DNA of 64,000 nt from Dehalococcoidia bacterium (GTDB taxonomy: Bacteria; Chloroflexota; Dehalococcoidia; Dehalococcoidales; JAUVZA01), in contig JAUVZA010000001.1 in assembly GCA_030602805.1 (NCBI GenBank), positions 2,426 through 66,425 of the forward strand, written 5' to 3'. Shown one piece after another: positions 2,870-55,783 of this stretch; the first letter of the stretch is position 1, and each line of letters begins with the position of its first letter. A program made the translations under genes and the position numbers. Below the pieces are notes generated by a model that had not been told where the DNA came from, ran no database searches, and saw only the letters and a list, made by a program, of their open reading frames with translations.

Positions 2870-3718
2870 TTAACCAAATAATTGCGTTGACATATCTTTA
2901 TGTAAAAGTCCTACCGCATCGGCACGGCATTGTCGGCAATGCGTCATTTGTTTAATAACTTTGGCACATTCATCCTGTAACCTCTTCCTCTCAGTAGGCG
3001 AAGGAGGACTAAGGTGAGTAAACTTGAAGAGAGGAATTAGAGGCATGATATTTTGCATGTAAACTCCAAGCTCTTTAATTTTTGTAGCCACTTCAATGAT
3101 ATGATTATCATTTATGGTAGGAATCATGACAGTGTTTACCTTGACAACTATTCCCTCTTTAACAGCCATCTTAATCCCCGCTAATTGATTATTGAGTAAC
3201 ACTTCCGCAGCTTCAACCCCTTCTAGCTTTTTACCCTGATAATAGACAACGGAATGGATTTTTGCTCCTATAGAGGGGTCAACGGTATTTAAGGTTACGG
3301 TCATAGTGGCTAGCCCTAATTGCTTTGCCGATTCCACTTTTTCTGGTAGCAAAAGTCCATTGGTGCTCATGCATTTATGTAGATAGGGAAACCTATCTTT
3401 TACTAGGCGAAACGTTTCAAAAGTTTCTTCATTAAATAGAGGGTCTCCTGGCCCGGCAATGCCTACTATCCTTATATTAGGAAATTTTTCAATTACTTCC
3501 CTAACTCTTCCCACCGCCTCTTGAGAGCTGATGACCTTGCTTGTCACACCAGGTCTACTCTCATTAACACAATCATATTCTCTACTGCAATAATTACATT
3601 GAATATTACACTTAGGAGCAACAGGCAGGTGAATCCTGCCCACGCGGTCGTGAGCTTGATCGCTGAAACACGGGTGCTGGCTGATAATATCGCTTGTCAC
3701 TAAGCTATCTAGCTTCAT
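2870..3718 (-). CDS. NifB-like radical SAM protein (radical SAM core only, no NifX-like extension)
   Basis: 282 aa. CNIQCNYCSREYDCVNESRPGV closely matches the NifB radical-SAM signature. Last gene of the nitrogenase-like cassette. Confidence 0.8.
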   Translation of the reverse strand: MKLDSLVTSDIISQHPCFSDQAHDRVGRIHLPVAPKCNIQCNYCSREYDCVNESRPGVTSKVISSQEAVGRVREVIEKFPNIRIVGIAGPGDPLFNEETFETFRLVKDRFPYLHKCMSTNGLLLPEKVESAKQLGLATMTVTLNTVDPSIGAKIHSVVYYQGKKLEGVEAAEVLLNNQLAGIKMAVKEGIVVKVNTVMIPTINDNHIIEVATKIKELGVYMQNIMPLIPLFKFTHLSPPSPTERKRLQDECAKVIKQMTHCRQCRADAVGLLHKDMSTQLFG

Positions 3719-3749
3719 TACACTCCCTCTATGGACGGCTCTACCTTAC

Positions 3750-4592
3750 CTATGCCTTCAGATGCCGCCGGTACAAAGCCTCCAGCTCAGATAGTTCCTC
3801 CAGCGGTGTCGGGATGACAGGAGAATCGTTGTTTATCACCTTTTCCGCCAACTCGCGGAATACCCCAGCCTCTGCCGACTGAGGAGAATGCTCCAGCACT
3901 GTTTGGCTCTCTACCTCACAGGCCTGAATCACCGGGCTGTGCGGGACAAAATGGACAAGCTTAGTTCCCAATCGCCCAGCGAAGTCGGAGAGAACCTCCT
4001 TCTCGAAACTATCCTGTCCGATACTGTTGCATATCACGCCAGCCAGCCCTGTTTCACCCCGCCGTGAGAGGCGGCGAATTGCTTTAGCAATGTTGTTAGC
4101 GGCATAAAGGCTCATAAAGCCTCCAGAGCAAATTAGGTAAATCTCCCTGGCATAGCCCTGACGAATTGGCTGGGCAAAGCCTCCGCAAACCACATCACCC
4201 AAAACATCGTAAACAACCACATCAACGCTATAGGTGTCGAAGGCCTTGAGGTCCCTAAGAATGTTGATTGCGGTCAGCACCCCCCGACCAGCACAGCCAA
4301 CCCCTGGCTCAGGTCCCCCCGATTCCACACAATAAACCCCCTGATGCCCCACAAAGACGATATCCTCAAGAGCGATGGCATATTCGTCACGCCCCATTCT
4401 CAGGTGCTCTCGATAGGTTTCGAGCACTGTTGGGATCAGCTGTCCCCCGGTCAGAGTCCTGGTGGAGTCTCTCTTGGGGTCGCAGCCTACCTGCATAACC
4501 TTCAAGACCCTTTGCTGCAGAGCAATACAAAGATTAGAGGCTATGGTGCTCTTGCCAATGCCCCCCTTGCCATATATTGCTATCTGTCTCAT
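3750..4592 (-). CDS. NifH-like ATPase / Fe protein of a nitrogenase-like enzyme
   Basis: 280 aa. P-loop [10 protein letters not shown]. Both 4Fe-4S Cys contexts are present ([11 protein letters not shown] and GDVVCGGF). Confidence 0.85.
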
Positions 4593-4595
4593 CCT

Positions 4596-5939
4596 TTACC
4601 ACCTCGCCTTGTATTCTCGCTGCCGTGACCGATATTTATCTCTCCAGTCGTTCTGGATGAACTCAATGATATTCAGCATGCCGGTGTAGCCGAAGTACTC
4701 ACGATTGATTATACGGAAACGTGTGGTGGGGGAAACCAGCAAAAAGACAAAGGGTATGTCCAGCTCCTCGACGGCGTGCTTTTCGATATTGCTGCCGAAG
4801 ACGATCTCCGGCTTGAGGTCAGCCAGCGCCACCTTCGACTGGTAGACATCAGCGCCATAGATCACCCGAGGGGCAAGGTTCAGCTCCTTAAGTTCCTTCT
4901 CCAAAACCCTTCTGGCTACCTCCTGGGAGGAGCGAAGACAGATGAGCTGGGGAACCATCTCCAGGTCCTCACTGATGAAGTGAACCAGGGGGATGCCTAC
5001 CGTAGCATCAGCAACGATTGCTACTGGCGCTCGATGCATAAAGAACTGCTCCAGACCCTTTCGCCGGCAGACCTCCACCACCATCTTCTCCCCCTCATTA
5101 GCTAACTTATCAGCCACCTCGCCGACACCGAACCTCTCCCCCAGCTCTCTTAGCCAGCGGCGGGTGTTGGTGAAGCCCACGGGCAAGGGGATATCCTGGC
5201 ATAGCTGCTCGACGCCAAACTCCGAAGCTAAATAACCGGCTGCCTTGTGACCACAGTCATGGCTCAACACCAGTGATGCCTCGCTGGCCGACACTCTTGC
5301 AAAATCGCTGAGGGCCGTCTGATGGGTGATGGTAGCCGTCACCTCAACCCCCATCCGTGAGAGCACGCCTTTCACCCACTCAAGGTCACCCATCCAGGTG
5401 GGATTGGCATTGGCGTAGGGAGCAATAAGGCACACCGATTTGGCTATCTTTTGCCCCCTGTCTACTATCAGCTTTTTCAACAGCACATCCAGGGCTATAT
5501 CGCTGCCATCGTATTGAGAGCCACGAAAGCCGGCGCACTGGATGGGCACCACATCGAAGTTCACCTGGCTACGCACATCCTCACAAACGGCAACGATGTC
5601 GTCGCCCACGATCTCGGGCCCGCAGGAACTCAACACAAAGACAATGGGAACATTGAATTCCTGGGCCTCCAGGATAGTGCGGGTAAGGAGTTCCTCGCCG
5701 CCATGGACAATCTCATTCTCACAGAGCTTGGTGCACAGGGTTAAGGTTTCTGTATAGTCAGCGTCCTGCCAGCCAAAGGCAGAGCTCACCAGCATATTGC
5801 AGCCCTGTGGTGCATAGGACAGGACGCAGCAGCCGCTAATGCCCAGAGCGGCCTGCGCGGCACCGTAGAGGGCACAGCGGAGATAAGGGTCGTGGCATTT
5901 CTCAGCCGTAGCTGTCACAAATTTACCGGTTGTACTCAT
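4596..5939 (-). CDS. Nitrogenase component-1 beta-like subunit (NifK/NifN-like)
   Basis: 447 aa. Cys residues in RCALYGA, YAPQGC and SSCGPEIVGDD contexts resemble NifK positions 70, 95 and 153. The start overlaps the upstream stop as ATGA. Confidence 0.7.
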   Translation of the reverse strand: MSTTGKFVTATAEKCHDPYLRCALYGAAQAALGISGCCVLSYAPQGCNMLVSSAFGWQDADYTETLTLCTKLCENEIVHGGEELLTRTILEAQEFNVPIVFVLSSCGPEIVGDDIVAVCEDVRSQVNFDVVPIQCAGFRGSQYDGSDIALDVLLKKLIVDRGQKIAKSVCLIAPYANANPTWMGDLEWVKGVLSRMGVEVTATITHQTALSDFARVSASEASLVLSHDCGHKAAGYLASEFGVEQLCQDIPLPVGFTNTRRWLRELGERFGVGEVADKLANEGEKMVVEVCRRKGLEQFFMHRAPVAIVADATVGIPLVHFISEDLEMVPQLICLRSSQEVARRVLEKELKELNLAPRVIYGADVYQSKVALADLKPEIVFGSNIEKHAVEELDIPFVFLLVSPTTRFRIINREYFGYTGMLNIIEFIQNDWRDKYRSRQREYKARW

Positions 5940-7348
5940 GACTGCCGATCTCCGTATAGAACCCGCCGAAATAGCTTCGAGCGAGGACGGCCAGCGTTGA
6001 CTACCGCCGACTCCACCAGCCTGGCTAGGTTAACAATGCCGGGATAACCATAATGGGGATAGCCGGTACGAGTGGTCAGGTTCACCTGAGGTATGCCGGG
6101 TTGTCTCATCGGGGTGCCAAAAAAGATGGCATTATTATATTCGGTGACCAGCTCTTCCAGTTGAAATTCCGTTTGCCAGGAGGAACGGAAGGTGCCCAAA
6201 GAAAAGATACCCTTGGTGAGCACCACCTCAGGGTTCTGCCCCGTCTCCAGAAGAAACTTTATGCTGGGCATCCTCTCCTTAATGGTGTAGGGGTGGATAT
6301 TGATAACCACCGGTCGCGCTCCGAACTCCTCAACCATTCTGGCTATGGAGAGGGCCCTGATCGGGCCAGGGAATTCGGCTACTTCAATAAGAGCTGTCTT
6401 GTCATTAAGATTCCTTCTCAGAGATTCGGCTTCCTCTTTGACCCCATCCGTCTCCTTCTGGATCACTTCTCTGGCCTTTTTCTCCAGACCCAGCGGCCTG
6501 GCTACTCCCATAATCCACTCCTCGGTTGCTCGGAGGCCGTAGGGCTGACCGGTACGGCTGTAGGCTATGCCGTATCTTTTCTGCATAAGGTCACCCAGCT
6601 TCTGCCCCCAGTCGTAGCACCACGAGGCGTTGAGCTCCACCTCGCGCGCCCGGCGAATCTCCTCCAGGGTGCAGCCACCACAGAGAACGGCATTGATGTC
6701 AACCCCGATGGCGTTTACCAACCTGATGATCTCATCCAGGTCTTCCCGCCACTCGGTGTAGGTAGGGCCCACCCTGGCACCGAGGATATTGATGGTTTTC
6801 TGCCTCTTCTGCCGCGGAGGCTCCATTAGATCCATGATAACCCGGAACGCATCCTCGAACCCGCTGCGGAAATCTCCACCGAAGCCCTCGCTGTGTATGG
6901 CTATCACCTTGGCGTTAACCGACTTCTCCGCTTCCTCAGCGATAGTTTCCACATCATCACCGATGATGCCTGAGCAGCAGCAGGAAAGGATAACAATGAG
7001 CTCAGGGTGATACCTTGCCTCCGCTTCCTTTACTGCCTCAACGAGCTTTCCCTCGCCACCATAGACAATATTGGTCTCACCCAGGGCAGTGCAACTGGTA
7101 GGCTCGAGGGGAACACCCCGGTATTCACAACTGGTCAACTTGTAGGCACTAGCCACGCCATAGGTGCAACCAACAGGGCCATGGATCACCGGTGCCATGT
7201 GACGAATACCATTAACCACCATAAAGGCCGTCCAGAACTTACAGGGGGGAGCATGAGAGGCCTGTAATTTGGGGATCATTTCTCCCTTTTCCACTTTCTC
7301 CAGCAACTGCTGTAGATTACCTCGAAAGGCGATATAGTCCTCGTCCAT
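5936..7348 (-). CDS. Nitrogenase component-1 alpha-like subunit (NifD/NifE-like)
   Basis: Cys residues in PPCKFW, HGPVGC, SCCCSGIIGDD and LNASWCYDW contexts. The preferred start is Met35 of the track ORF (7348), with GGAGG 8 nt upstream. The longest ORF would start at 7450. Confidence 0.7.
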   Translation of the reverse strand: MDEDYIAFRGNLQQLLEKVEKGEMIPKLQASHAPPCKFWTAFMVVNGIRHMAPVIHGPVGCTYGVASAYKLTSCEYRGVPLEPTSCTALGETNIVYGGEGKLVEAVKEAEARYHPELIVILSCCCSGIIGDDVETIAEEAEKSVNAKVIAIHSEGFGGDFRSGFEDAFRVIMDLMEPPRQKRQKTINILGARVGPTYTEWREDLDEIIRLVNAIGVDINAVLCGGCTLEEIRRAREVELNASWCYDWGQKLGDLMQKRYGIAYSRTGQPYGLRATEEWIMGVARPLGLEKKAREVIQKETDGVKEEAESLRRNLNDKTALIEVAEFPGPIRALSIARMVEEFGARPVVINIHPYTIKERMPSIKFLLETGQNPEVVLTKGIFSLGTFRSSWQTEFQLEELVTEYNNAIFFGTPMRQPGIPQVNLTTRTGYPHYGYPGIVNLARLVESAVVNAGRPRSKLFRRVLYGDRQS

Positions 7349-7477
7349 TCCTGTTGCCTCCCTTCCAGCTAAATCGAGTAGGATTCCAACTGACAGCCGG
7401 TTTACCAATGCTAGGCCGGCTGTACCATCTACAGTGACACAACATAGCATAACGCCCTGTCGGCTCTGGCGTCAACT

Positions 7478-9877: not shown

Positions 9878-10171
9878 CTACTTTCCCTCTAATAATTCAG
9901 CAATCTCTACCTTCCCCTTTTTGATATACTCCGCCTGCTTGGGGTCGAGAATTCCCAGTAGTGCCAGGAATTCCCCTACATGCTCCTTTTCATCATCCCG
10001 AGCATGGGCTAGCACTTTCTTAGCTCGCTCATCGTTAGTAGCGTCAATATGAGCTTGGTAGACAGCAACAGCATCCAGCTCGGCGGCTATATCTTGCATT
10101 ATAGCCCTCGCTAGCTCAGCGGCGTTCATCTTTCGGAGCACCAAAGTCCCAAAAGGATTACTGAAGTCCAT
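9878..10171 (-). CDS. Small ferritin-like protein of the encapsulated-ferritin (EncFtn) type
   Basis: 97 aa. AAELDAVAVYQAHIDAT...AHARDDEKEH aligns by eye with the EncFtn core (EELEAVDWY...HNRDEEKEH), including the Glu/Glu/His iron ligands. Confidence 0.65.
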   Translation of the reverse strand: MDFSNPFGTLVLRKMNAAELARAIMQDIAAELDAVAVYQAHIDATNDERAKKVLAHARDDEKEHVGEFLALLGILDPKQAEYIKKGKVEIAELLEGK

Positions 10172-10224
10172 TTTTCACCTCCTTTACTTTATTTTCTCAG
10201 GTTTGATTGCAGAGTATAAGTCCC

Positions 10225-10602
10225 TTAGCTAGATTTCCATAAACCGTGAATGCTGCAATACTCTCTGGCGGTTACTTTTTGCGGCTTTATGTCGAACTCT
10301 GCCTCCGGTTTTTCTCCTGGCTTAAGAAATATCCGGCAACTCTTGCCGTCAGCGATTATTTCTACCCACTCTATGTAGTGCTTTTCCTCCATTGGGTGGG
10401 GAATATCGCCAACCTTGACCTTTATTCCGTTATCTGTTGCCTCAATCACCGGTACATGCTTTTCCAGGCCAGCATCCGTTGCTTTCTCCTGGAGTAACTC
10501 CATTGGCTGCCCGCAACAGACTAGCTCCCCTTCCCCTGTATGCAGCACTTCGGTAATATTGCCGCAAACATTACACCTATAGACCTGCTTTTGTACTGTC
10601 AT
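10225..10602 (-). CDS. dfx: Desulfoferrodoxin (2Fe superoxide reductase)
   Basis: 125 aa. N-terminal desulforedoxin motif [12 protein letters not shown]...LVCCGQPM, followed by an SOR domain with HVPVIE and a C-terminal Cys/His. Confidence 0.9.
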
Positions 10603-10616
10603 GTTTTATACCTCCT

Positions 10617-11300
10617 TTATTCTATTTTTTCAAACTCATCCTTAGCTGCCCCACAGACAGGGCACACCCAGTCGTCTGGTATTTCCTCAAAGGGTGTTCC
10701 CGGTTTTATGCCGCCATCGGGGTCTCCCAGTTCAGGGTCGTAAATATAGCCACAAACGGTACATTTGTATTTTGGCACTTTGGCTACCTCCTTCTTCTCT
10801 TCAACATAGCTGGGAGCTGTCTTAGGCGTGGTGCCCCGTTTGACCTGATGGTAATAGGCATAGGTCATTGGTTCGCCTTCTTTAATAACATCTGCTCCCA
10901 CAAGCTCTCCAACAAAGATAGTATGAGTGCCCACATCCATCTCTTGAATTATCCTGGCTTCCAGATAAGCTAAGGTATTGTCAGTAACCACTGGAGCCTG
11001 GGTCTCACCTATTTTATAACTAATGCCCTCGAGTTTATCTATGTCCCTGCCTGACTTGAAGCCGAAGTGACCAATAAAAGAGAGAGGTGTATCCTGGGAA
11101 AGAATAGAAGCTGTAAAGACCTTGCTTTCCTTAATAAACTCGTGGGTTAGATTGTTTTTGTTGATGCTCACGGCAATAGTTGGCGGCTCAGAAGTTATTT
11201 GAAACACCGTATTAGCGATTTGCCCGTTGAGTCTATCTCCCTTTCTTGAGCTCACTACATACAAGCCGTAACCTAACTTATATAAAGCCTTAACATTCAT
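10617..11300 (-). CDS. Flavin-reductase domain fused to rubredoxin (high-molecular-weight rubredoxin type)
   Basis: C-terminal rubredoxin motif [13 protein letters not shown]...[16 protein letters not shown]-terminal flavin reductase-like domain. Start moved to ATG 11300, which has GGAGA 7 nt upstream; the track ORF extends to 11336. Confidence 0.85.
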
Positions 11301-11396
11301 TATTAGTCTCCAGGTCAAGCTTTTGAATTCCGGCAAAGGCAGCCTCTAGGTTCTTCTAGGTCCCGCTTCCTTTGAGTTCCATTAGTTTCTCCTTTC

Positions 11397-11627
11397 CTAC
11401 TTGGATTTCCTGATATAAACCTTGTATCCTCTGGCTTCTTCTTCAACACCTAAAAACTCATTTCCTGTGGCGTGGCACCAGGCGGGCATGTCCTGTTTTA
11501 TCCCTATATCATCAGCCGCCACTTCCAGAACCTCCCCCTGCCTCAGCTCTTTAATCTTCTCAGCGGTTTTAACAATCGGCATAGGACAATACAAGCCTAT
11601 GCAGTCTAAGCTTTGGTCGGCCTTCAT
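11397..11627 (-). CDS. TusA/SirA-like sulfurtransferase
   Basis: 76 aa with the signature LDCIGLYCPMPIVKT. Confidence 0.85.
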   Translation of the reverse strand: MKADQSLDCIGLYCPMPIVKTAEKIKELRQGEVLEVAADDIGIKQDMPAWCHATGNEFLGVEEEARGYKVYIRKSK

Positions 11628-11662
11628 CTTCTCCTCCTTGATTTGCCTCAGTGATTGTCTAA

Positions 11663-12151
11663 TTAGATAAAAAGGGTAACCTTTGATTCACGCGCCTCAC
11701 CCAAGAAATAACCGGCGCCGGCCAAACTATCAACCTCACTGCGGAAAGTATCCTTTTCTGGAGACAAGCCCATCACTCCGCAGGTAGTGGTGCAAGCAAC
11801 AAGTTTTACCCCCATTTGATGTGCCATAGTGATATACTCATCTATGGACGGCATATTAGTATCCTTCATCAGCCTCTTCATCATCCAGGTACCCAGGCCA
11901 AACATATTGCGCTTGGAAAGCTTCAGTCTCTTGGAGCCGCCCCGGTTGATAAGGTTCAGCATCTTCCTCATTATCCCTCGGCTTTTGATTGAGCCCTCAT
12001 TTCTCTTAATGATGTTTAGACCCCAGAAGGTGAAGAACACGCTCACCTCCATCCCCATAGCGGCACCAGTGATAGCCAGCATAAAAGCGGCTAAAGCCCG
12101 CTCTAGGTCCCCGCTTAAGACAGCTATGGTTAGCTTTTCCCTCTCTGCCAT
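11663..12151 (-). CDS. DsrE/DsrF-like family protein
   Basis: 162 aa. The pattern KLTIAVLSGDLERALAAF...VFFTFWGL is typical of the DsrE2-like family. It is paired with the TusA-like gene. Confidence 0.7.
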   Translation of the reverse strand: MAEREKLTIAVLSGDLERALAAFMLAITGAAMGMEVSVFFTFWGLNIIKRNEGSIKSRGIMRKMLNLINRGGSKRLKLSKRNMFGLGTWMMKRLMKDTNMPSIDEYITMAHQMGVKLVACTTTCGVMGLSPEKDTFRSEVDSLAGAGYFLGEARESKVTLFI

Positions 12152-12178
12152 TTAGTTCCTCCTCCTTTATAGACGATT

Positions 12179-12373
12179 TCAGCCCCGAATCTCAGCCCCG
12201 CAATGAGGGCATACCTCATTGCCCCGGAGTAATGGCTTTCGGCACTCAGGACAATAGAATACGGTTATTCCACAAGCCTGGCAGTAAGGTAGAGCAGATA
12301 TGACTAGCTCGTCTTCACAGTAGGGGCAAAAACACTTCCTCTGCTTTTCCTTTGGCTCTTCACTCCTTTTCAT
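12179..12373 (-). CDS. Double zinc-ribbon protein
   Basis: 64 aa with four CxxC pairs (CPYC, CQAC, CPEC, CPHC). Overlaps the upstream gene stop by 14 nt. Confidence 0.5.
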   Translation of the reverse strand: MKRSEEPKEKQRKCFCPYCEDELVISALPYCQACGITVFYCPECRKPLLRGNEVCPHCGAEIRG

Positions 12374-12776
12374 CTTTCCTCCTCTTTTTGCTTTTCACCT
12401 TTTTGCCCGGCTTCTTCAGGTAGTCATCAATAGCCTTATTCAGGGCTTGAGCGCCGAGGTTGGAGCAATGATACTTGTTTTTGGGCAGCCCTTCTAGCTC
12501 CTGAGCTACCAGCGCTGGGGTTATCTTTCTCGCCTTCTCCAGCGTCTTTCCCATAGCCATCTCGCTCACGATACTGGAGACGGCGATGGCGGCGCCGCAG
12601 CCGAAGGTCTTGAACTTGACATCGCTGAGTTGGTTATCGTCCACCTTGATGTAGAAGGTCATCATATCCCCACAAACAGGGTTTCCCACCTCACCGATAC
12701 CATCTGGGTTCTCAATCTCCCCCACATTGCGGGGGTTCATGAAGTGTTCCATCACTTTGTCGCTGTAAACGGGCAT
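12360..12776 (-). CDS. IscU/NifU N-terminal-type Fe-S cluster scaffold
   Basis: 138 aa. The motifs YSDKVMEHFMNPRNVG, GNPVCGD, FGCGAAIA and HCSNL give the three scaffold Cys. Lys-rich tail. Confidence 0.9.
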   Translation of the reverse strand: MPVYSDKVMEHFMNPRNVGEIENPDGIGEVGNPVCGDMMTFYIKVDDNQLSDVKFKTFGCGAAIAVSSIVSEMAMGKTLEKARKITPALVAQELEGLPKNKYHCSNLGAQALNKAIDDYLKKPGKKVKSKKRRKDEKE

Positions 12777-12777
12777 C

Positions 12778-13965
12778 TTACCTCCCTCCCCTCTCTCCTT
12801 TCAGGAATTTAGCATAAAGTGGCGACATCTGCCGCAGCTTATCAACGATGGGCGGCATCGCTTCTAAGACATAGTCCACATCCTCCTCAGTATTCTCCAG
12901 ACCGAGGCTGAAAAGTAGCGAGCCTTGTGCTATTTCAGGGGGAATCCCCATGGCGGTGAGAACATGGGATGCCTTGAGCGCCCTCGAGGTGCAGGCCGAG
13001 CCACTGGAGGCAGCGACACCTTTGCTAGAGAGGAGCATCAGCGTCGCCTCCCCCTCGATGAACTCGATACAGAAGCTGGCATTTCCGGGGAGGCGCTGGG
13101 TGGGATGTCCAGTGAGGGTCACATGCTCGTTCCGGGACAGTAGGCCCCCGATCAACCTGTTGCGCAGGGCAGAGAGATGCTCCATCCTGGACTCCATCTC
13201 CTCCTTGGCCAGCTCAGCAGCTTTTCCCAGACCGACAATCGCCGGCACATTCTCGGTCCCGGCTCTCCGTCCTCCCTCCTGCACTCCACCATCGAGGAAG
13301 GGAATGATGCGCACCCCCTTCTTGACCCAGAGGGCACCGATTCCTTTGGGCCCGTAAAGCTGATTACCAGCCAGGCTTAAAGCATCTACTGTCAATTCCT
13401 TTACATTCACCGGGATGGTACCAGTGGTGGCCACGGCATCAGTGTGAAAAATCGCCCCCGCTTCTTTCGCTAACCTCGCTATCTCCCTGATGGGCTGGAT
13501 GGTGCCCACTTCACCGTTGGCGTGCATCACCGAGACCAGAATGGTATCCTCCCTTATGTTTTTGGCTACGTCTTCGCGGTCCACCAACCCGCACCTATCC
13601 ACCGGCACCAGGGTAAGCTCGAAGCCCCATTTCTCCAGGGTTCTGGCAGAATGCAATACTGAGAAGTGCTCAATTGCGGAGATAACTATATGCTTGCCCT
13701 TAGATTGCTGAGCCATCGCCAACCCTTTAATAGCTAAGTTGTTCGACTCAGTGCCACTGGAGGTAAAGATAATTTCCTCTGGCTGGGCGCCGATGAGGTC
13801 CGCCACCCTGCCCCGGGCATCCTCTATAGCTTCCCTGGCATCATCTCCCCAACCGTGCAGAGATTGGGGATTGCCATAAGCATCCTTGAAATAGGGCAGT
13901 ATAGCCTCCAGCACTTCGGGCAATATAGGAGTGGTGGCAGCATGGTCCAAGTAAACCTTCCTCAT
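12778..13965 (-). CDS. Cysteine desulfurase (NifS/IscS class I)
   Basis: 395 aa. [10 protein letters not shown]-terminus, a PLP-Lys region and the active-site loop SSGSACTS. Directly upstream of the scaffold gene. Confidence 0.9.
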
Positions 13966-13993
13966 TTTCTGCCTCCAGGATTTCTAGTCTTAT

Positions 13994-14530
13994 TTAGCCA
14001 CCATCCAGAGATGGGTGTTCTTTCCTAACAAACCACCCTGCTGGGTCTTTGAGGTACTCGTAGTAGTCAAGCAGAATTAGATGATGTTCCCTTTCTTCGG
14101 CAGCCAAGGTCTCATAAAAGTCTCTCTCAGCATCATAGGTAGCATTTCCCCCCTGGCTTTTGTAGAAATCATTGGTCTTATTTTCCATGTCCATGGCTGT
14201 TTGTATGGCATCAACCTCGGTGGGTAGAGCCTTTATATTGGAGCCAATTTCCTCGGTTGCCCTGGCAAATATGGTTCTCAGTCTTTTGCCTCCATCAGGC
14301 TGAAAGTCAGTCGTGGGCCAAGCCTTTTTACTTCGTATAGCACTGTATATCTCCTCAAACTTCTGCCGGTGAGTGTCTTCTTCTGTGGCTAGTGACTCCA
14401 GCAGTTTCTTACCCAGCTCATTATTACTTTCCTGGCTAGCTTTCAGATAGTATTCCTTGCCATCAATTTCCATCTGGGTAGCAATTTGAAGTGCTTTTAG
14501 AGTTTTATTCTGTTCGTTTTCCATACTCAT
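13994..14530 (-). CDS. Rubrerythrin-family ferritin-like diiron protein (no rubredoxin domain)
   Basis: 178 aa with duplicated E...ExxH-type helices (EIDGKEYY...EEDTHRQ; MENKTNDFY...EEREHH). Confidence 0.75.
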   Translation of the reverse strand: MSMENEQNKTLKALQIATQMEIDGKEYYLKASQESNNELGKKLLESLATEEDTHRQKFEEIYSAIRSKKAWPTTDFQPDGGKRLRTIFARATEEIGSNIKALPTEVDAIQTAMDMENKTNDFYKSQGGNATYDAERDFYETLAAEEREHHLILLDYYEYLKDPAGWFVRKEHPSLDGG

Positions 14531-14906: not shown

Positions 14907-17375
<2,469 letters not shown>

Positions 17376-17495
17376 CTACTGATAGCCTCCTTCCTGACCT
17401 CATCAGGCTAGGTCTTACCTAGCGACCAGGAGCTATTAGCTCTTGGTTTCGGCCTACAAGGCTGCGAGAGGGAAATGATAGGTACAAAACACAGG

Positions 17496-17792
17496 TTACA
17501 TCTGGTGACCACCGTGTCCGGCCATCTCATGCCCTCCGCCTCCGGTATACTTGGCAGGGTTTTCATCAAAGGCTTTCTTGCAGCCGGGCGAGCAGAAGTA
17601 GTAGGTCTTGCCTATGTGCTCCGACTTAGCCGGTGCCATCTTCTCATCCACCTCCATGCCACAAACCGGGTCTTTAGCCATCTTTGCCACCTCCTTTTCA
17701 TGCTTCTTCATCAACGCTGGCTCCATCTTCATAGTCTCTTCTTTTTTGCCCCCTCCCCCAAAAAGTTTGCCCAACCAGCCCATACTTGTCAC
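17496..17792 (-). CDS. YHS/TRASH-domain metal-binding protein
   Basis: 98 aa. DPVCGMEVD...YYFCSPGCKKAF is the YHS signature. Gly/His-rich tail. Confidence 0.8.
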   Translation of the reverse strand: MTSMGWLGKLFGGGGKKEETMKMEPALMKKHEKEVAKMAKDPVCGMEVDEKMAPAKSEHIGKTYYFCSPGCKKAFDENPAKYTGGGGHEMAGHGGHQM

Positions 17793-17831
17793 CTCCTTTT
17801 TGTCCTGTTCAGGTATGCTTGTAGCCCTGTC

Positions 17832-17987
17832 TTAAATCTCTCTGTTTAATATTTTCTGCTTCAGGGTTTCCCACTCACTCTTGGTCAGAACGCAGACGTT
17901 GTCCTTCTCACCTATCTCGACATGCTCGTCAGCTATCTTGACTACCGGACAACTTTGACAGGCACTACGTAAGCTCACTATTTTCAC
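17832..17987 (-). CDS. Unannotated 51-aa ORF between csoR and the YHS gene
   Basis: GTG start with GGAGG 8 nt upstream. Translates to MKIVSLRSACQSCPVVKIADEHVEIGEKDNVCVLTKSEWETLKQKILNREI. It fills an otherwise empty operon gap and is below the ORF-track length cutoff. Confidence 0.3.
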   Translation of the reverse strand: MKIVSLRSACQSCPVVKIADEHVEIGEKDNVCVLTKSEWETLKQKILNREI

Positions 17988-18081
17988 CTTTTTCACCTCC
18001 TTTCCAGAAAGAGTTTAGTCGCTATGTTATGTCCGTGAATGTCTTTATTGCGTGAAATCACCATTGAAATCATCACCGGTA

Positions 18082-18387
18082 TTACCGCCTCATAGCCTTA
18101 CGCAGTGTTTCCATCAACTCCCTCATGTGACTCTCGCTATGTTGCTCACGAATGGCATCAGCAACGCAGCCCTCAATGTGATTCTCAAGGATAAGGAGCG
18201 CAACCTCATCAGCCGCTGCACCTAGAGCCGTTATCTGCTGTATGATGTCAATGCAATAACGGTCTTCCTCAATCATTCGCCGAATACCTTTAGCCTGACC
18301 CTCGATTTTCTTCATCCTTGCTAAAAGGGATGGTTTTTCTTTGGTGTATCGGTACTGTCTCGTCATTGTTGTGGGCATCCTGTCCAT
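18082..18387 (-). CDS. csoR: CsoR/RcnR-family metal-sensing repressor
   Basis: 101 aa. The GIRRMIEEDRYCIDIIQQI...ENHIEGCV pattern gives the C-H-C ligand set. First gene of the copper operon. Confidence 0.85.
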   Translation of the reverse strand: MDRMPTTMTRQYRYTKEKPSLLARMKKIEGQAKGIRRMIEEDRYCIDIIQQITALGAAADEVALLILENHIEGCVADAIREQHSESHMRELMETLRKAMRR

Positions 18388-27475: not shown

Positions 27476-28291
27476 CTATCCTCCGGCCTCGCCATTTTTA
27501 AGGGTTACAAAGATGGTCTTCCTAACCCTAGTTTTTGGTCTTGGTATGGCGGCGACTTTCTTGAAAAGGCTGGGGTCTGCCTCCCCTGTCAGCGGTTTTT
27601 CTCCTATCGTTCCTACCTCGGACATCTCTCCCAATTTATTTAGGATATTCGCCAGCGGGGTAGGCTTTGGTAAGGCGATTGTAATGGCAGTGTCTCCCTT
27701 CCAAGAACCAACCATTTGCAGCAGGCGGGACTGAAACATCTCCTCCACTCGACTAACGAATCTTATCAACTGGTTAGCATCAACAGGTGGAGGTATAACC
27801 ATCTGCACCTCGTCAGGCATGGGGCCATTGTGCTCTTGCAGAAGGCTCCCTTTTGCCTTTTTGCCGAATCTCTCTTCATACTCAATTCGGGGTTGAGCTG
27901 TAATACTCTCACTAATCACTACTTCCCCATGGTGAACCTGCCTAATAGCTTGGGTAATTTCCGCACGCTTTGCATCTTTGAGGAGGTAACCTACTACCCC
28001 AGCCTCAATAGCCTCAGCCAGGTACTCATCATATAAAGTCAACATAATGACATTGCAGAAGGGTTGGTTCTCCCTTAGCTGTCGAGTAAGCTCAATTCCG
28101 TCCACCCCGGGCATCTTAATATCCATAAGAACAATGTTCGGGGAAAGCCTTTCTACCTGGGACAGGGCTTCTAAACCATCGGCGCTTTGGCCTACTACTT
28201 CCATATCCTCTTCTTGTTTCAGCATGTGCTGCAAACCCTCACGCACAACCTGGTGGTCATCAACTAAGAGAATCCGAATATCTTTCTCCAT
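27476..28291 (-). CDS. Response regulator: receiver domain plus an uncharacterised C-terminal 'GSW' domain
   Basis: The REC domain has DD, D(MDIKMP) and K(LLKD). The C-terminal 110 aa or so (VQMVIPPPVDANQLIRF...GSWKGDTAITIALPKPTPL...TIFVTLK) are shared with 34990-35808 and 37252-38556. Confidence 0.8.
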   Translation of the reverse strand: MEKDIRILLVDDHQVVREGLQHMLKQEEDMEVVGQSADGLEALSQVERLSPNIVLMDIKMPGVDGIELTRQLRENQPFCNVIMLTLYDEYLAEAIEAGVVGYLLKDAKRAEITQAIRQVHHGEVVISESITAQPRIEYEERFGKKAKGSLLQEHNGPMPDEVQMVIPPPVDANQLIRFVSRVEEMFQSRLLQMVGSWKGDTAITIALPKPTPLANILNKLGEMSEVGTIGEKPLTGEADPSLFKKVAAIPRPKTRVRKTIFVTLKNGEAGG

Positions 28292-34989: not shown

Positions 34990-35808
34990 TTAGCTTGCTC
35001 TCAGCTCGGCTGATTCTAATTGTTTGGCTGTGCTAGTCTGCTTTAGGGTTACCAGGAACTTTTTCCTGGGACGGACCCTTAGTTTGGCTATGGATTTTTG
35101 GGGAAAGCTAAAGGAGTCGCGTTTTGCCGCTGGCTGTTCTTCCACCTCTTCTACATCGGGCATCTTTACCAGCCTATCTAACATATCTATAAATGGAGTG
35201 ACCTTTCGTAGCCTTACAGTAATAGTGGTGCCCTTATCCCAGGAGCCAACTTGTTGCACGATGGTTGCCTCGAGCGCCTCTTCCACTTGGTAAGCGAATC
35301 TTAGTAACCGAGCTGCATCAATAGGCGGAAGTATAACTAACTCTGCCTCTTTAACCAAGGTGCCGGAGCTATCGCCTCCCTGCGGCAGGTATTCTGACCC
35401 TCCTTCCACACCTTGGAGTGTGAAACGCTCATCAATAACTAATTCCCCGTTGTAAACTCTCCTAATAGCCTGGGCAAGCTCTTGGCGCTTTATGTCTTTA
35501 AGAAGGTAGCCTACTGCCCCAGCTTCCAGAGCCTCAGCCAGACAGTCCTCACACAAGGTTAGCATAATAATTTTAGAAGGCGTCCGTTTTTGGCAATAGC
35601 GGCGAGTAGCCTCAATTCCGCCCATGCCTGGCATCTCGGCTTCCATAAGGATGATGTTTGGTGAGAGTATTTCCGTCTGGCGCAAGGCTTCCTCAGCAGA
35701 GGAGCAATCGCCTATGATTTCCATATCTTCTTCCTGCTCCAGCATACCTCTCACCCCACGGCGAACAATCTCATAGCTATCAACTAAGAGTACTCGGATT
35801 TCCTTCAT
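34990..35808 (-). CDS. Response regulator: receiver domain plus C-terminal 'GSW' domain (paralog of 27476-28291)
   Basis: REC domain followed by AELVILPPIDAARLLRF...GSWDKGTTITVRLRKVTPF...KFLVTLK. Start moved to Met13 (35808), which has a GGGAG RBS. Confidence 0.8.
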   Translation of the reverse strand: MKEIRVLLVDSYEIVRRGVRGMLEQEEDMEIIGDCSSAEEALRQTEILSPNIILMEAEMPGMGGIEATRRYCQKRTPSKIIMLTLCEDCLAEALEAGAVGYLLKDIKRQELAQAIRRVYNGELVIDERFTLQGVEGGSEYLPQGGDSSGTLVKEAELVILPPIDAARLLRFAYQVEEALEATIVQQVGSWDKGTTITVRLRKVTPFIDMLDRLVKMPDVEEVEEQPAAKRDSFSFPQKSIAKLRVRPRKKFLVTLKQTSTAKQLESAELRAS

Positions 35809-36075
35809 AATTTTTTGCTCCCTATCTTTGATATTACTGAGCAAGAGCAGGAATTGGTACAGATGGTTGATAAAAAATAGCTTTTGATACTTTGGGCACT
35901 TGACCTGTGCCCCATATAGTTTAGACTCAGCTATAGTATCCTACGGCTTCCAGCGGGGATAAATAGCCCATTAGTAACTTTATGCCTAGGTAATTAGTCC
36001 TATTGGCTTGTTCTGAGAAAGTGCTCAAAGGGAGCTTTGTTAGGTGGAGCCTTAATTGTATTTGCCGCTATCCCA

Positions 36076-37251: not shown

Positions 37252-38556
37252 ATGGTGGAAAGGGAAATTAGTATTAGTCCTATGTTCAAGTGGCTTACTA
37301 AGCGATTCGACAAGAAGGACAAGAAGGTCAAGAAGGGGCGGAAGACAAGGCTCTTGTGGGGAAGGGAATTCAAGACTGTAAAAAAGGGGCTAGATGAAAA
37401 GCAGGTAGTTGATTCTGTGAATGACCCGGTGGCACAGTATGGTGCTTCACTCGACCCACTCCTTGAAACGACAGTAACGGATGCTGAACAGCTAGCAGCC
37501 AGCATCAAGGTGAAGGCACAACAAGAGGCCGAAGCCGAAGCTGAGAGGATTATTAGCCAAGCCAAGCAAGAGGTTCAGGAGATAAAGCTGAGCGCTGAAA
37601 TAGCAGCTGAGAAAGAAGCGGAAGATATTCTGTCAACGGTAAAGAGAAAAACTGAAATCATTGAGGCAGAAGCAAAGCAGCGAACTCTACTATACCTCCT
37701 CAGGGCAAGAGAGGAGATAGAGAAACAGATAAGGGAGGACTACAAGCGGGCTTACGCCCGATTATCCTCTTCCGTACAGGACCTAATGAATGAAGGGCAG
37801 AATATAGAAGTGGAGTTGAAGAACAAAAGAATAACGCTGTGGGAGAGCGAAAGCTTTGAACTGAAGGAATATGAAGCTGCACTGCTCAAGACCTCTGAAG
37901 TTACTGTGCTTCCTCTTGAAACATTGGCTCCTGAAGAGGGGACAGAGCAACCCGTTCAGCTTCAAGAGGAAGTTTCAGAGGAGAAAACAGAAGAGCCTGT
38001 CCAGCTTCAGGAAGAAGCTACTGAAGAGGGGACAGAGCAACCCGTTCAGCTTCAAGAGGAGGTTTCAGAGAAGGAAACAGAGCAGCCTGCCCAACTTCAA
38101 GAAGAAGCTACTGTCTCTGAGCCAACGGAGGAGGCAACGGAAGAGCTCTTGGGGCAGCACCCTCCGGAGGAAATACCTGACAGAGAGGAAACCAACTCTA
38201 CCCAGTTAAAACCAGCGGATAGCCAAACCCTTTATGCTGGTGAGGTAGAGTTAGCTATAGCTATGCCAGTAGAACTAAAGATGGTGTCTAAGTTATATAA
38301 TTATTTGCAAACGATACCTGATATAAAGATTCTCCGTACAACAGGCTCTTGGGACCGAGGCACTACTATAACAGTTGTGGCAGATAAGCCGATTCCCTTA
38401 ATCAGTAAAATATCAAAGATACCTGGTGTGGAAGTAACATCAGAGTTGCTTCAAAAGGATGATTTGGTGAAGGGGACATCAAGCTCACTGCTGCGAGCAG
38501 GGGGAAAGGGAGTAAAAGGGGTAAAAATAATCAAACTAACTTTAAAAGAAGCGTAA
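37252..38556 (+). CDS. DivIVA-like N-terminus + coiled coil + acidic repeat region + C-terminal 'GSW' domain
   Basis: 434 aa. The N-terminus has a REFKTVKKGLDEKQV motif (DivIVA-like), followed by AEAEAERIISQAKQE coiled coil and PVQLQEE repeats. The C-terminus is VELAIAMPVELKMVSKL...GSWDRGTTITVVADKPIPL...KIIKLTLK. First gene of the pilB operon. Confidence 0.6.
   Translation: MVEREISISPMFKWLTKRFDKKDKKVKKGRKTRLLWGREFKTVKKGLDEKQVVDSVNDPVAQYGASLDPLLETTVTDAEQLAASIKVKAQQEAEAEAERIISQAKQEVQEIKLSAEIAAEKEAEDILSTVKRKTEIIEAEAKQRTLLYLLRAREEIEKQIREDYKRAYARLSSSVQDLMNEGQNIEVELKNKRITLWESESFELKEYEAALLKTSEVTVLPLETLAPEEGTEQPVQLQEEVSEEKTEEPVQLQEEATEEGTEQPVQLQEEVSEKETEQPAQLQEEATVSEPTEEATEELLGQHPPEEIPDREETNSTQLKPADSQTLYAGEVELAIAMPVELKMVSKLYNYLQTIPDIKILRTTGSWDRGTTITVVADKPIPLISKISKIPGVEVTSELLQKDDLVKGTSSSLLRAGGKGVKGVKIIKLTLKEA
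37931..38110 (+). repeat. Two tandem 90-bp coding repeats (four PVQLQEE sub-repeats)
   Basis: The unit starts at 37931 and again at 38021 (ctgaagaggggacagagcaacccgttcagcttcaagagga...). It encodes EEGTEQPVQLQEEVSE(E/K)(K/E)TE(E/Q)P(V/A)QLQEEAT. Confidence 0.85.
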
Positions 38557-47075: not shown

Positions 47076-47543
47076 TTAATACCCGGTGCTTGCTTGGTCC
47101 ACCGTTCCAGAGGCATCAACAGTATAGGTGCCCTTGGTGGTGTCTGTAGCCAAATAGTTGACCAGTCCGGTTCCAAGACCATCGGCCATTATATCGTGCT
47201 GATAGAGTAGAAATCCATCCAGGTCACCAGCTGCGTATGCAACTCCATCGGGGTCATTTATCTTGTCAACAGTGATTGCCGAGGTCGCATCGGGGAAGGC
47301 ACCCATATCGCTAGTGGCTACGGCTATCGGATTGGGCAGTGAGCTCAACTGGTTATCAACCATCAGGGCAATCACGGCTGTCTGGACGTTGGCGAACTCA
47401 GTTTCTGCCGCCTCCTCCTCACCAGCGCCGATGAACCGTCCCACATTGGGGATGACCACGGCTGCCAGCACACCAAGGATGGCAACCACGATGAGCAACT
47501 CAATCAGGGTAAACCCCTTCTCCCCCCTTTTAGGTAATCTCAT
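47076..47543 (-). CDS. pilA: Type IV major pilin, copy 1
   Basis: 155 aa. Class III signal MRLPKRGEKG|FTLIELLIVVAILGVLAAVV. No Cys. Confidence 0.85.
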   Translation of the reverse strand: MRLPKRGEKGFTLIELLIVVAILGVLAAVVIPNVGRFIGAGEEEAAETEFANVQTAVIALMVDNQLSSLPNPIAVATSDMGAFPDATSAITVDKINDPDGVAYAAGDLDGFLLYQHDIMADGLGTGLVNYLATDTTKGTYTVDASGTVDQASTGY

Positions 47544-47600: not shown

Positions 47601-48068
47601 TTAATACCCGGTGCTTACTTGGTCCACCGTTCCAAGTAAATCAACAGTATAGGTGCCCTTGGTGGTGTCTGTGGCCAAATAGTTGACCAGTCCGGTTCCA
47701 AGACCATCGGCCGTTATATCGTGCTGGTAGAGTATAAATCCATCCAGGTCACCAACTGCGTATGCAACTCCATCGGGGTCATTTAGCTTGTCAACAGTGA
47801 CTGCCGAGGTCGCATCGGGGAAGGCACCCATATCGCTAGTAGCTACAGCTACCGGATTGGGCAGTGAAGCCAGCTCGTTATCGGTCATCAGGGCAATCAC
47901 GGCTGTCTGGACGTTGCTGAACTCAGTGGCTGCCGCTTCCTCCTCACCGGCACCGATGAACCGCCCCACATTGGGGATGACCACGGCTGCCAGCACACCA
48001 AGGATGGCAACCACGATGAGCAGCTCAATCAGCGTAAACCCCTTCTCTCCTCTTTTTGGTAGTCTCAT
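47601..48068 (-). CDS. pilA: Type IV major pilin, copy 2 (tandem paralog)
   Basis: 155 aa, with the same leader. About 90% identical to copy 1. The duplicated unit spans 47071-47561 and 47596-48086. Confidence 0.85.
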   Translation of the reverse strand: MRLPKRGEKGFTLIELLIVVAILGVLAAVVIPNVGRFIGAGEEEAAATEFSNVQTAVIALMTDNELASLPNPVAVATSDMGAFPDATSAVTVDKLNDPDGVAYAVGDLDGFILYQHDITADGLGTGLVNYLATDTTKGTYTVDLLGTVDQVSTGY

Positions 48069-54734: not shown

Positions 54735-55783
54735 TATTCGCCCCTCTGGACAATCTGACAGTAAAACTCCGGTGTTACTGTCCACCCCTCCTCCCATTCT
54801 GAGGTATCCCTTGAAACCAGCTCATAGTCACCACCAGTGGTAACAGAAAGGGTGTAGGTGTTACCGGGAGTAAAATCTTTTAAGTTAAAGGTGACCCATC
54901 CGTTTTCCAGAGCGAGTGTCCGGTAGTTGGGTGTCTCCCCTGCCTCTACCGAGCCTTCAAGATACAGATTTATATTAAGAGAGTCATACGCCTTAACCAG
55001 GTCACCGGTATTGGTTAAATATACCCGCACCGCTAGGTCACCGGTAAATTCAGAATGGGGGGTGATATCAAACAGGTCATCCATCGGCACATCACCCGAG
55101 AGCAGCGGAGCCTCGTAACTAACTTCAACATAGACCTGGGTGCAGTTTGTGTTTTGCTCTGCTGTCGGCTCTCTAAGTCCGACGCCGATTTGCAGGGCAT
55201 CTATTTCATCCCACGTCCAGTCAGTAAGTGTTTGTGGGTTGGTATTCCATTGATATGAATAGGTAGCATAGCTGGTAGTTATAGTCGCCTCGCTACCGTT
55301 ATATTCTGTTTCATTAGTCTTGATATGAGCATATACGCTGGTTTGCGTTGGGCTAGCATCGGCTCTACATTCCATATAGACCTTAACATAATTTATGGTG
55401 CCAGCGCCGGCGGAGTGGTCAGCGATGCTGTATAAATCTTCCTGCCAGGCGGAGCTGCTGGTGTAGACATAGGTGCTATCGCCATCGGGTGTCTCTTCAT
55501 ACACCTTATCCCAGTGTTCTCCCGAATCAGGATACTGGCTTGAGATATTGGTCTCGTCGCCAGCGGCATCTGGCCTTAAAATTTCGGTCTGGGTCACTGG
55601 CGTCAGGATAAAATCCCAGTCGGGCTGAGTGGTAGCTAGTTCATAGGTGGCAATATCCGCCCCGGTTACAGTAACACCCATTGTTGCCGTAGCTGAGAGG
55701 TAGCTAAAGGCATATAAGCCGCTGGTAATCACCATGGCTAGCACCAAGCCTAACATTAATTGTAACCGGAACTTCCTTTTCAT
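54734..55783 (-). CDS. Secreted protein with a SipW-cognate-type signal peptide (fibre-subunit paralog 2)
   Basis: 349 aa. Signal peptide MKRKFRLQLMLGLVLAMVITSGLYAFSYLSA. It contains the inserted ILRPDAAGDE...EIDALQIGVGLR...VYVEVSY module and the shared core. Confidence 0.6.
   Translation of the reverse strand: MKRKFRLQLMLGLVLAMVITSGLYAFSYLSATATMGVTVTGADIATYELATTQPDWDFILTPVTQTEILRPDAAGDETNISSQYPDSGEHWDKVYEETPDGDSTYVYTSSSAWQEDLYSIADHSAGAGTINYVKVYMECRADASPTQTSVYAHIKTNETEYNGSEATITTSYATYSYQWNTNPQTLTDWTWDEIDALQIGVGLREPTAEQNTNCTQVYVEVSYEAPLLSGDVPMDDLFDITPHSEFTGDLAVRVYLTNTGDLVKAYDSLNINLYLEGSVEAGETPNYRTLALENGWVTFNLKDFTPGNTYTLSVTTGGDYELVSRDTSEWEEGWTVTPEFYCQIVQRGE

Follow-up and report, generated by a model that had tools for sequence, protein, structure and literature searches.

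The D-K-H-B locus and its Fe protein

The window analysed here is a stretch of 64 kb from a Dehalococcoidia bacterium (contig JAUVZA010000001.1), and it carries on the minus strand a cassette of four genes of the nitrogenase superfamily, in the order D-K-H-B. D and K resemble the alpha and the beta subunit of nitrogenase (NifD, NifK) and of the methylthio-alkane reductase Mar (MarD, MarK), H is a Fe protein of the NifH family and B is a NifB. All four open reading frames (ORFs) are intact, and the cassette extends from 2870 to 7348. Its features are the following.

5936-7348, minus strand: D, 470 aa, NifD/MarD-like alpha subunit, PF00148; the longest ORF reaches 7450
4596-5939, minus strand: K, 447 aa, NifK/MarK-like beta subunit, PF00148
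3750-4592, minus strand: H, 280 aa, NifH-family ATP-dependent Fe protein, PF00142
2870-3718, minus strand: B, 282 aa, stand-alone NifB of the radical S-adenosylmethionine (SAM) type, archaeal type, without a NifX domain
7357-7366, minus strand: ribosome-binding site GGAAGGGAGG, 8 nt before the D ATG at 7348, read off the sequence
7446-7475, minus strand: sigma-70-like promoter candidate TTGACG-18-TATGCT, about 100 nt upstream of the D start, found by consensus scan only

The genes are closely packed: the D stop codon and the K start codon overlap as ATGA (within CAG TCA TGA GT as written), K and H are separated by 3 nt, and H and B by 31 nt. These junctions were already given in an original prediction made on this DNA, and they match both coordinates and sequence. 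The same prediction had placed the cassette at 2870-7450; its four packed minus-strand genes stand, while its upper end has to be moved, as D begins at 7348. This ATG is preferred to the start at 7450 because the ribosome-binding site GGAAGGGAGG lies 8 nt upstream of it, because homologues have 466-470 aa, and because an independent gene call, which sits on a 4.7-kb metagenomic (Logan) contig with an identical cassette, also gives 470 aa.

The promoter candidate at 7446-7475 might be part of the system, since -35/-10-like elements occur at the equivalent position in related loci, where the remaining upstream DNA is not conserved. In the upstream DNA of ten close loci no conserved regulatory element was found beyond these promoter-like hexamers, and in an Rfam scan of the window tRNA was the only match.

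H matches PF00142 (Fer4_NifH) at an E value of 7e-99 and has what characterizes the NifH family: the Pfam domain, the P-loop (GKGGIGKS at residue 8), the Switch regions and both cluster cysteines, Cys100 and Cys136, which correspond to NifH Cys97 and Cys132. P-loop and cysteines are all invariant in the family, and the alignment supports the earlier claim that H had kept them. The protein is 53% identical to NifH of C. pasteurianum and 47% identical to MarH. On the NCBIfam models it scores 355 bits for nifH (cut-off 394) and 349 bits for CfbC (cut-off 402); being below both equivalog cut-offs, H is a member of the family and an orthologue of neither.

Cluster ligands of D and K and the link to NifB

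D and K match PF00148 (Oxidored_nitro) at E values of 3e-72 and 3e-78, respectively; like the match of H, these lie well outside what chance would give. Ligands were assigned with MAFFT and hhalign against A. vinelandii NifD, a reference identical to the PDB chain residue for residue, and against R. rubrum MarD and MarK, from marBHDK references taken as DNA, with a MarD numbering that agrees with the literature. Every motif quoted in the original prediction was found in the ORF translations, namely PPCKFW, HGPVGC, SCCCSGIIGDD, LNASWCYDW, GIPQVNLT and GGDFRSGFED in D, and RCALYGA, YAPQGC and SSCGPEIVGDD in K.

In the alignments, Cys36, Cys61 and Cys124 of D fall on NifD Cys62, Cys88 and Cys154, and Cys22, Cys47 and Cys106 of K on MarK Cys32, Cys56 and Cys121, so all six positions of the P-cluster ligand set of canonical nitrogenase (NifD 62/88/154, NifK 70/95/153) are kept. 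The cofactor anchor is also present, D Cys244 being the equivalent of NifD Cys275 and MarD Cys270. These seven cysteines are invariant across 82 D and 64 K sequences. Other residues of the cofactor environment are replaced: NifD His442 corresponds to D Thr425 (Thr or Ser among aligned family members), Gln191 to Phe160, His195 to Phe164 (Phe/Tyr in the family) and Arg96 to Tyr69, and NifD Lys426 also lacks an equivalent. The six cysteine contexts, the Cys275-like residue in LNASWCYDW and, by eye, the loss of His442, Gln191 and His195 had all been proposed from the sequence, and all hold in the alignment.

The second shell is closer to nitrogenase. D Val44, Gly328 and Arg331 align with NifD Val70, Gly356 and Arg359, and the equivalent of NifD Gly424 is probably conserved as well. 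The helix above the cofactor reads F-R-S-G-F/Y-E in D, which is closer to W-S-T-G-F-D of MarD than to Q-S-L-G-H-H of NifD.

MarDK carries a P-cluster and a [Fe8S9C] cluster supplied by MarB; Arg428-His429 of MarD ligates and stabilises the latter and is a proposed Mar hallmark on Loop I (PMC12552129; PMC13474568). Both MAFFT and hhalign place D Gly411-Thr412 at this position. Across the D family the position of His429 is occupied by Thr, Asn or Ser, and within the alignment set the Arg-His pair is confined to Mar/Nfa-like sequences. Since the pair is absent, Mar is a precedent for the cassette and not its family. Of the MarBHDK precedent named in the original prediction, the dedicated NifB-type maturase is indeed shared, while family membership falls with the hallmark pair and the clade. 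A further invariant residue, D His352 (in N-x-H-P-Y-T), aligns beside MarD His375, which is near the belt sulfide S2B (PMC13474568).

At least 97% conservation is found at 175 of the 470 D residues across the 82 sequences, which come from Bacteria and Archaea, and the D-K-H family is under strong purifying selection. Besides the ligands, D has invariant cysteines at 74, 86, 123 and 226 and a 98% conserved one at 125, residues 123-125 forming the SCCCSG triple, and its invariant histidines are 32, 50, 56 and 352. K has invariant Cys15 and Cys73 and nearly invariant Cys69 and Cys119 (64 sequences). D Cys86 and K Cys69 are equally spaced before an (I/V)V(Y/H)GG motif. An AlphaFold2 model of D (mean predicted local distance difference test, pLDDT, 68.9; predicted template modelling score, pTM, 0.75) has MarD 9fmg_A as its best Foldseek match in the PDB (E 4e-17, TM 0.61), with C. 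pasteurianum NifD and NifE as the next best; the best PDB sequence match of K is MarK 9d9u_C (E 6e-23).

B matches Pfam Radical_SAM and passes the NCBIfam nifB equivalog TIGR01290 with 348 bits (cut-off 343.65). Its best PDB match is NifB of Methanothrix thermoacetophila, 6Y1X (E 1e-111, 57% identity over the alignment). In vivo, the M. thermoacetophila enzyme produces an [8Fe-9S-C] cluster (bioRxiv 10.1101/2023.10.20.563283). B keeps the radical-SAM CxxxCxxC motif and the K1/K2 cluster ligands, and the cluster motifs HPCF, CNIQCNYC, DCVNE, KCMSTNG and HCRQCRADA stand at positions identical to those in 6Y1X and 7BI7. Outside its own lineage the nearest relatives of B are NifB proteins of ANME-1/Methanomicrobia (62-65% identity).

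The NifB linkage of bacterial D-K-H is obligatory. A NifB-type gene follows H in 18 of 18 distinct bacterial-type loci that extend past H (one further locus, a duplicate of an already counted region, was left out), and the D-K-H-NifB arrangement is found likewise in the window and in locus L093. Adjacent B genes were found in 0 of 51 archaeal-type loci within the fetched flanks, as is to be expected since all methanogens are reported to have and to need NifB (bioRxiv 10.1101/2023.10.20.563283). In two Dehalococcoidia loci, L007 and L008, one gene sits between H and B (11561-12697 and 11620-12675, respectively); it encodes 351-378 aa with repeated 'DGSW' motifs, which by eye resemble prenyltransferase or terpene cyclase repeats.

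Moreover, the B genes of bacterial cassettes fall in two NifB lineages. Most cassettes have a type 2 B, which scores 238-257 bits on the nifB model, like MarB (259), and has a GC content like that of D, K and H. The type 1 B of the window, L012, L084 and L093 scores 348-366 bits, above the cut-off. In the window, B has a GC content of 0.41 and a GC content at third codon positions of 0.37, against 0.54-0.55 and 0.58-0.67 in D, K and H; the same contrast is seen in L012 and L093 and is absent from type-2 loci. Because B is a compositional outlier only in type-1 loci, a recent displacement of the resident B by lateral transfer is suggested: the resident type 2 B has apparently given way to a foreign NifB of archaeal type, with the position retained. 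A foreign B in an unchanged position argues that D-K-H needs the NifB product, and we regard this as the strongest evidence at hand. The earlier idea of a reductase with a NifB-derived cluster is thus backed, by linkage and by the two lineages of B, as far as NifB dependence is concerned; the reductase and its cluster are still deduced rather than observed.

The foreign composition of B, together with truncated or partial copies in some Dehalococcoidales (L001, L004), could also be taken as a sign that the cassette of the window genome is a laterally acquired remnant, non-functional or decaying. We consider this very improbable: the four ORFs are intact and translationally coupled, the ribosome-binding site is good, no ligand residue is damaged, a sequencing run independently yielded an identical cassette, and the family is, by its conservation, under strong purifying selection.

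Family, phylogeny and genomic surroundings

The cassette had been called an orphan, a view that does not hold, as it belongs to a widespread and conserved family that includes methanogens. A protein search over 5.8 billion proteins gave 416 matches, of which the best 120 all reach 70% identity or more. In GTDB species genomes, 80 loci with 64-85% identity were detected, spread over Dehalococcoidia, Anaerolineae, Bathyarchaeia, Methanoregula, Methanolinea, Methanosarcina, Methanothrix and Methanolliviera metagenome-assembled genomes. The best named relatives of D are from Dehalococcoidales (85%), the overall D-K-H identity across loci ranges from 64 to 94%, and the order D-K-H is universal among family loci. 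When 1.84 billion cluster representatives were searched exhaustively with HMMER, a discrete D family emerged, with one full-length representative at 65% identity, the proteins P0122 and P0123 at 38-39% and the rest at 35% or less.

Family sequences stand in public databases under generic names, and no published description of a D-K-H(-B) clade was found in the literature searched. The family could belong to one of the published clades labelled IV-D and IV-E, whose members are not listed in searchable text, or be a new one. The category 'Group IV NFL of unknown function with a NifB homologue' (NFL, nitrogenase-like) is already recognised (PMC13474568). The family is set apart by its gene order, the lack of a known distal His, a remodelled domain III of D, extra invariant cysteines, its spread over two domains of life and its two NifB lineages. 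Partial copies were also observed: in Dehalococcoidales, L001 (CP070832) has an intact D and a truncated K, without H or B, and L004 (CP070645) carries only D and K. In some genomes the system thus appears to be dispensable or in decay.

In neighbour-joining trees with 100 bootstraps, the D family forms its own clade (bootstrap 100) and is joined by P0122 and P0123 (99). It is separate from the clade of NifD, AnfD/VnfD and NifE (100) and from that of MarD, P0220 and P0223 (94). D is 21-28% identical to NifD, AnfD, NifE and MarD. Its best NCBIfam score is 157 bits for nifE (cut-off 505), it scores 122 bits for nifD (cut-off 654), and K reaches 106 bits for BchB (cut-off 490), 62 for nifK (cut-off 427) and 34.5 for nifN (cut-off 327), so that both subunits are far under all curated Nif, Vnf, Anf, NifE/N, Bch and Cfb cut-offs. 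None of the NCBIfam models passed on ten near relatives, and the protein P0157 had no PDB match at 1e-20. This placement, proposed as a check in the original prediction, puts D outside the Nif/Anf/NifE clade, and D and K do not fall inside Groups I-III with the residues of the FeMo-co environment. The cassette is thus, on sequence grounds, not a canonical nitrogenase; the prediction that it was not a canonical N2-fixing system agrees with the clade position, the failed cut-offs and the loss of His442, Gln191 and His195.

Two groups of relatives in these trees have gene contexts of their own. A sister clade, here called C, groups with the D family plus P0122/P0123 (bootstrap 82); its D/K-like pairs (L089, 3677-6630; L091, 6587-9542) have a Cys275-type cysteine and shared C-x-x-W-G and H-P motifs, with no NifH or NifB gene nearby, and their neighbours are ADP-forming acyl-CoA synthetase, methylmalonyl-CoA mutase-like proteins, CoA transferases and thiolases. 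P0122 (39% identical to D) is encoded with a K-like partner, which retains all three P-cluster-type cysteines, at L085 8001-10849 and also in L086; the pair lies directly after anfH-D-G-K and precedes FecCD/ABC/periplasmic-binding genes and AnfO, that is, in a vnfEN-type position.

D and K might accordingly be read as a NifEN-like scaffold or maturase, which would take up the NifB cluster, finish it with the help of H and pass the cofactor to another enzyme. NifE is the best curated profile of D (157 bits), there is no His at the His442 position, as in NifE, and the nearest relative P0122 and its partner stand between anfH-D-G-K and AnfO. This alternative is nonetheless improbable, as K has three interface cysteines against one in NifN, with a nifN score of only 34.5 bits, the partner of P0122 also has three, D lies outside the NifE/NifD clade, and neither the window nor the related loci examined encode a nitrogenase or another obvious client.

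Another candidate function is that of a biosynthetic reductase acting on a tetrapyrrole or another cofactor precursor, like BchLNB, BchXYZ, CfbCD or the proposed Group VI. Bch and Cfb reductases have a single [4Fe-4S] cluster (held by three Cys and an Asp, or symmetric) and no Cys275-type site, and they need no NifB. The top NCBIfam match of K is BchB and H scores nearly equally on CfbC and NifH, as would be expected for such an enzyme; the 3+3 cysteines, the Cys275 equivalent and the obligatory NifB of the present system, together with Bch/Cfb scores that are all far below cut-off and the absence of tetrapyrrole genes nearby in the Pfam scans of the window, make it highly unlikely. D and K do not cluster with BchNB/CfbD.

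Finally, the cassette could encode a cryptic NifEN-independent nitrogenase like the Group IV-A enzyme Nfa; its iron-only cluster would reduce N2, N-oxides or hydroxylamine to ammonia. The six P-cluster cysteines and the Cys275 equivalent are kept, as are the equivalents of the gatekeeper Val70, of Gly356 and Arg359 and probably of Gly424, which Mar lacks or replaces, and a NifB gene is present; Nfa is moreover a precedent for 15N2 incorporation that may be supported by an NFL enzyme lacking NifEN (PMC13474568). Against this, none of His442, Gln191 and His195 is retained, the scans of the window showed no PII, NifI or nitrogen-assimilation genes, and the promoters look sigma-70-like. NfaD is reported to have a Cys50/53/60/78/81 pattern (C-x2-C-x6-C...C-x2-C) and to retain the Mar-type Arg-His pair (PMC13474568), and the D family has neither. 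The Cys pattern was found only in P0223, a pattern-matched metagenomic protein that served as stand-in for the E. proavitum sequence and so sets the family apart from Nfa indirectly: it joins MarD (bootstrap 94), and D lies outside both the Nif and the Mar/Nfa clades. An Nfa-like nitrogenase is thus an unlikely, although not negligible, alternative.

Searched in six frames with Nif, Mar and family references, the 64-kb window contained no second PF00148 pair and no further NifH or NifB, and Pfam scans (1-37 kb and selected later ORFs) found no NifX, PII, ModA or NifV; the other ORFs of 37-64 kb (pilus genes, sensor kinase, large hypothetical proteins) were judged by eye. The lack of nifE/N/V/X/Q, PII and mod genes stated in the original prediction agrees with these searches, for 37-64 kb partly by eye. 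Downstream of B are an IspH, an acyltransferase and a macro-domain protein, the last (2162-2743; ADP-ribose-binding/hydrolase) directly after B. Control of H by ADP-ribosylation through this gene was considered and dropped, because the gene is not beside the cassette in other loci. Upstream of D are an acetyl-CoA synthetase, an oxidative-stress/Fe-S block, a Cu-ATPase and CsoR. The block, on the strand of the cassette (9878-14530, minus), encodes an EncFtn-like protein, desulfoferrodoxin, a flavin reductase-rubredoxin fusion, DrsE_2, an IscU-like NifU_N protein, an IscS/NifS-like class-V aminotransferase and rubrerythrin. These genes could provide building blocks for Fe-S clusters, but they are not conserved beside the cassette elsewhere. 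At 14907-18387 lie the copper-type P1B ATPase, with two HMA domains, and the CsoR-like metal-sensing repressor.

The remainder of the window consists, partly by eye, of two-component regulators, a type IV pilus cluster and hypothetical proteins. Two response regulators (27476-28291 and 34990-35844) are 44% identical to each other and share a C-terminal segment of 60-75 aa, without a Pfam family, with the C-terminus of a 434-aa protein (37252-38556; 28-33% identity, E 1e-6 to 1e-8) that heads the pilus cluster. This type IV pilus/secretion cluster (about 37-52 kb) contains tandem pilin-like genes (47076-47543 and 47601-48068) whose products are 91% identical over 155 aa. At 52848-56631 lie three adjacent paralogous hypothetical proteins (649, 349 and 246 aa) with shuffled blocks that are 55-70% identical.

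Clustering of the ORFs of 83 related loci and of the first 20 kb of the window revealed no family-wide conserved neighbour and gave no hint of the substrate. Recurrent neighbours were found in methanogen loci alone, and there in a minority: a TehB/TPMT-like methyltransferase, an ABC-2 pair and a transporter of the major facilitator superfamily. The SAM-dependent methyltransferase (210 aa; TehB 45 bits and TPMT 43 bits, both above the Pfam cut-offs) stands directly after H in about ten methanogen loci, e.g. L035, L040, L046, L054, L062, L069, L076, L077 and L079, and could possibly be a functional partner or a lead to the substrate. The ABC-2 ATPase/permease pair is upstream of D in several methanogen loci.

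Proposed mechanism and comparison with known systems

Taken together, D-K-H-B is most plausibly a self-contained, ATP-driven two-component reductase of the nitrogenase superfamily, with an architecture of a P-type and a NifB-made cluster, a reading to which we give a probability of roughly 60%. Cluster identities, electron path and substrate class are in this scheme inferred. B would join two [4Fe-4S] units and a SAM-derived carbide into an [8Fe-9S-C] cluster of the L-cluster/NifB-co type, which would be handed straight to D, without NifEN, molybdenum or homocitrate, and be anchored there by Cys244. The H dimer, with its [4Fe-4S] cluster and two nucleotide sites, would dock on a D2K2 tetramer, and ATP hydrolysis would drive electrons from H to a P-type [8Fe-7S] cluster held by three D and three K cysteines. 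From there the electrons would proceed to the iron-only carbide cluster, where a small substrate would be reduced.

Several observations weigh against this reading of a Mar-like two-cluster reductase. No candidate residue for a distal cofactor ligand was found in D, the His442 site being Thr and the MarD His429 site Thr, Asn or Ser, and domain III of D is remodelled, with a 13-residue insertion and without the helix that follows the GSG loop of NifD and MarD; the cofactor could therefore differ from the L-cluster or sit differently. The extra invariant or nearly invariant cysteines (D 74, 86, 123, 125 and 226; K 15, 69, 73 and 119) suggest that the interface cluster is possibly a non-standard P-cluster. 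In addition, the AlphaFold2 model of D is moderate only, with pLDDT below 50 in the cluster-binding domain I, and the trees are neighbour-joining rather than maximum-likelihood. No conserved sulfur-metabolism neighbour that would support an organosulfur substrate was found in the clustered loci.

As to the substrate of the proposed reductase, a nitrogenase-like second shell and a Mar-like aromatic helix, without the N2-specific Gln191/His195 proton relay or a distal His, favour the reductive cleavage of a small apolar molecule other than N2. By analogy with Mar, which cleaves DMS, EMS or MT-EtOH into methanethiol and a hydrocarbon, the leading candidate would be C-S cleavage of a volatile organosulfur compound, a guess that is more doubtful than the reductase itself. 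A more far-reaching proposal, put forward here as speculation, joins these elements: D-K-H-B could be a distinct NifB-dependent enzyme class, passed on laterally between anaerobic Chloroflexota and methanogens living in sulfate-poor wetlands, peat and digesters. It would hold its cluster by Cys alone or with a non-His distal ligand, have an interface cluster modified by the CCC motif and the pseudo-symmetric cysteines, and catalyse a reaction new to the superfamily, which in methanogens might be linked to the TehB/TPMT-like methyltransferase after H.

To our knowledge, the use of NifB-made carbide clusters is known or strongly indicated for no more than three enzyme types: nitrogenases, Mar and the methyl-coenzyme M reductase activation complex. 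With its high conservation, its presence in two domains of life, its constant NifB in Bacteria and its lack of a known distal His, the family is a natural experiment on how proteins tune carbide clusters, and it could show what else such clusters can reduce. As methanogens and Chloroflexota of peat, wetlands and digesters commonly carry it, its substrate could bear on the turnover of sulfur, of carbon gases (methane or ethylene) or of nitrogen. In practice, a 'nifHDKB' match in genomes of Dehalococcoidia, Anaerolineae or Methanomicrobiales should not count as diazotrophy.

Among known systems, the Mo, V and Fe nitrogenases (Groups I-III) share with D-K-H-B the fold, the two-component logic, the P-cluster ligands, Cys275 and the equivalents of Val70, Gly356 and Arg359. 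They differ in sequence (21-28% identity, the D family being outside the Nif clade and its curated scores far below cut-off), in His442, Gln191, His195, Arg96 and Lys426, all of which D lacks, and in the nifENVXQ, PII and mod genes, none of which are near the cassette. NifEN has in common with it the best profile of D, the missing His at position 442 and the EN-like slot of P0122 in the anf cluster, and is distinguished by the single interface Cys of NifN, with a [4Fe-4S] cluster in place of a P-cluster, against three in K, by a separate clade and by a nitrogenase client, which is not encoded here. B is like the archaeal NifB of M. thermoacetophila (6Y1X) in passing the NifB cut-off, in its 57% identity, in its motifs and in having no NifX domain; it differs in that it sits in a bacterial NFL operon, is compositionally foreign and has apparently displaced a type 2 B.

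The closest likeness is to MarBHDK (Group IV-C, R. rubrum, PDB 9FMG, 9D9U). Both systems combine a Fe protein, a D/K pair and a dedicated NifB-type enzyme, without NifEN or homocitrate ligands, and both have the six P-cluster cysteines, an anchor equivalent to Cys270 and an aromatic cofactor helix; among PDB entries, the D model comes closest in structure to MarD, and K in sequence to MarK. The differences are that D and K are each only 25% identical to their Mar counterparts and belong to a separate clade, that Arg428-His429 is replaced by Gly411-Thr412, that the equivalents of Arg359 and Val70, lacking in Mar, are kept in D, that domain III of D is remodelled and extra cysteines are invariant, and that the family also occurs in Archaea. 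The order D-K-H-B is, as originally predicted, unlike that of Mar (B-H-D-K). Nfa (Group IV-A, NfaBHDK of Endomicrobium proavitum) is a second NifEN-less B/H/D/K system with the six P-cluster cysteines and the Cys275 equivalent, and is set apart by its Cys pattern and its Arg-His pair, both missing from the D family. By analogy, D-K-H-B would thus work like Mar, and possibly like Nfa, while standing outside Mar, Nfa, NifDK, NifEN and Bch/Cfb as a lineage of its own.

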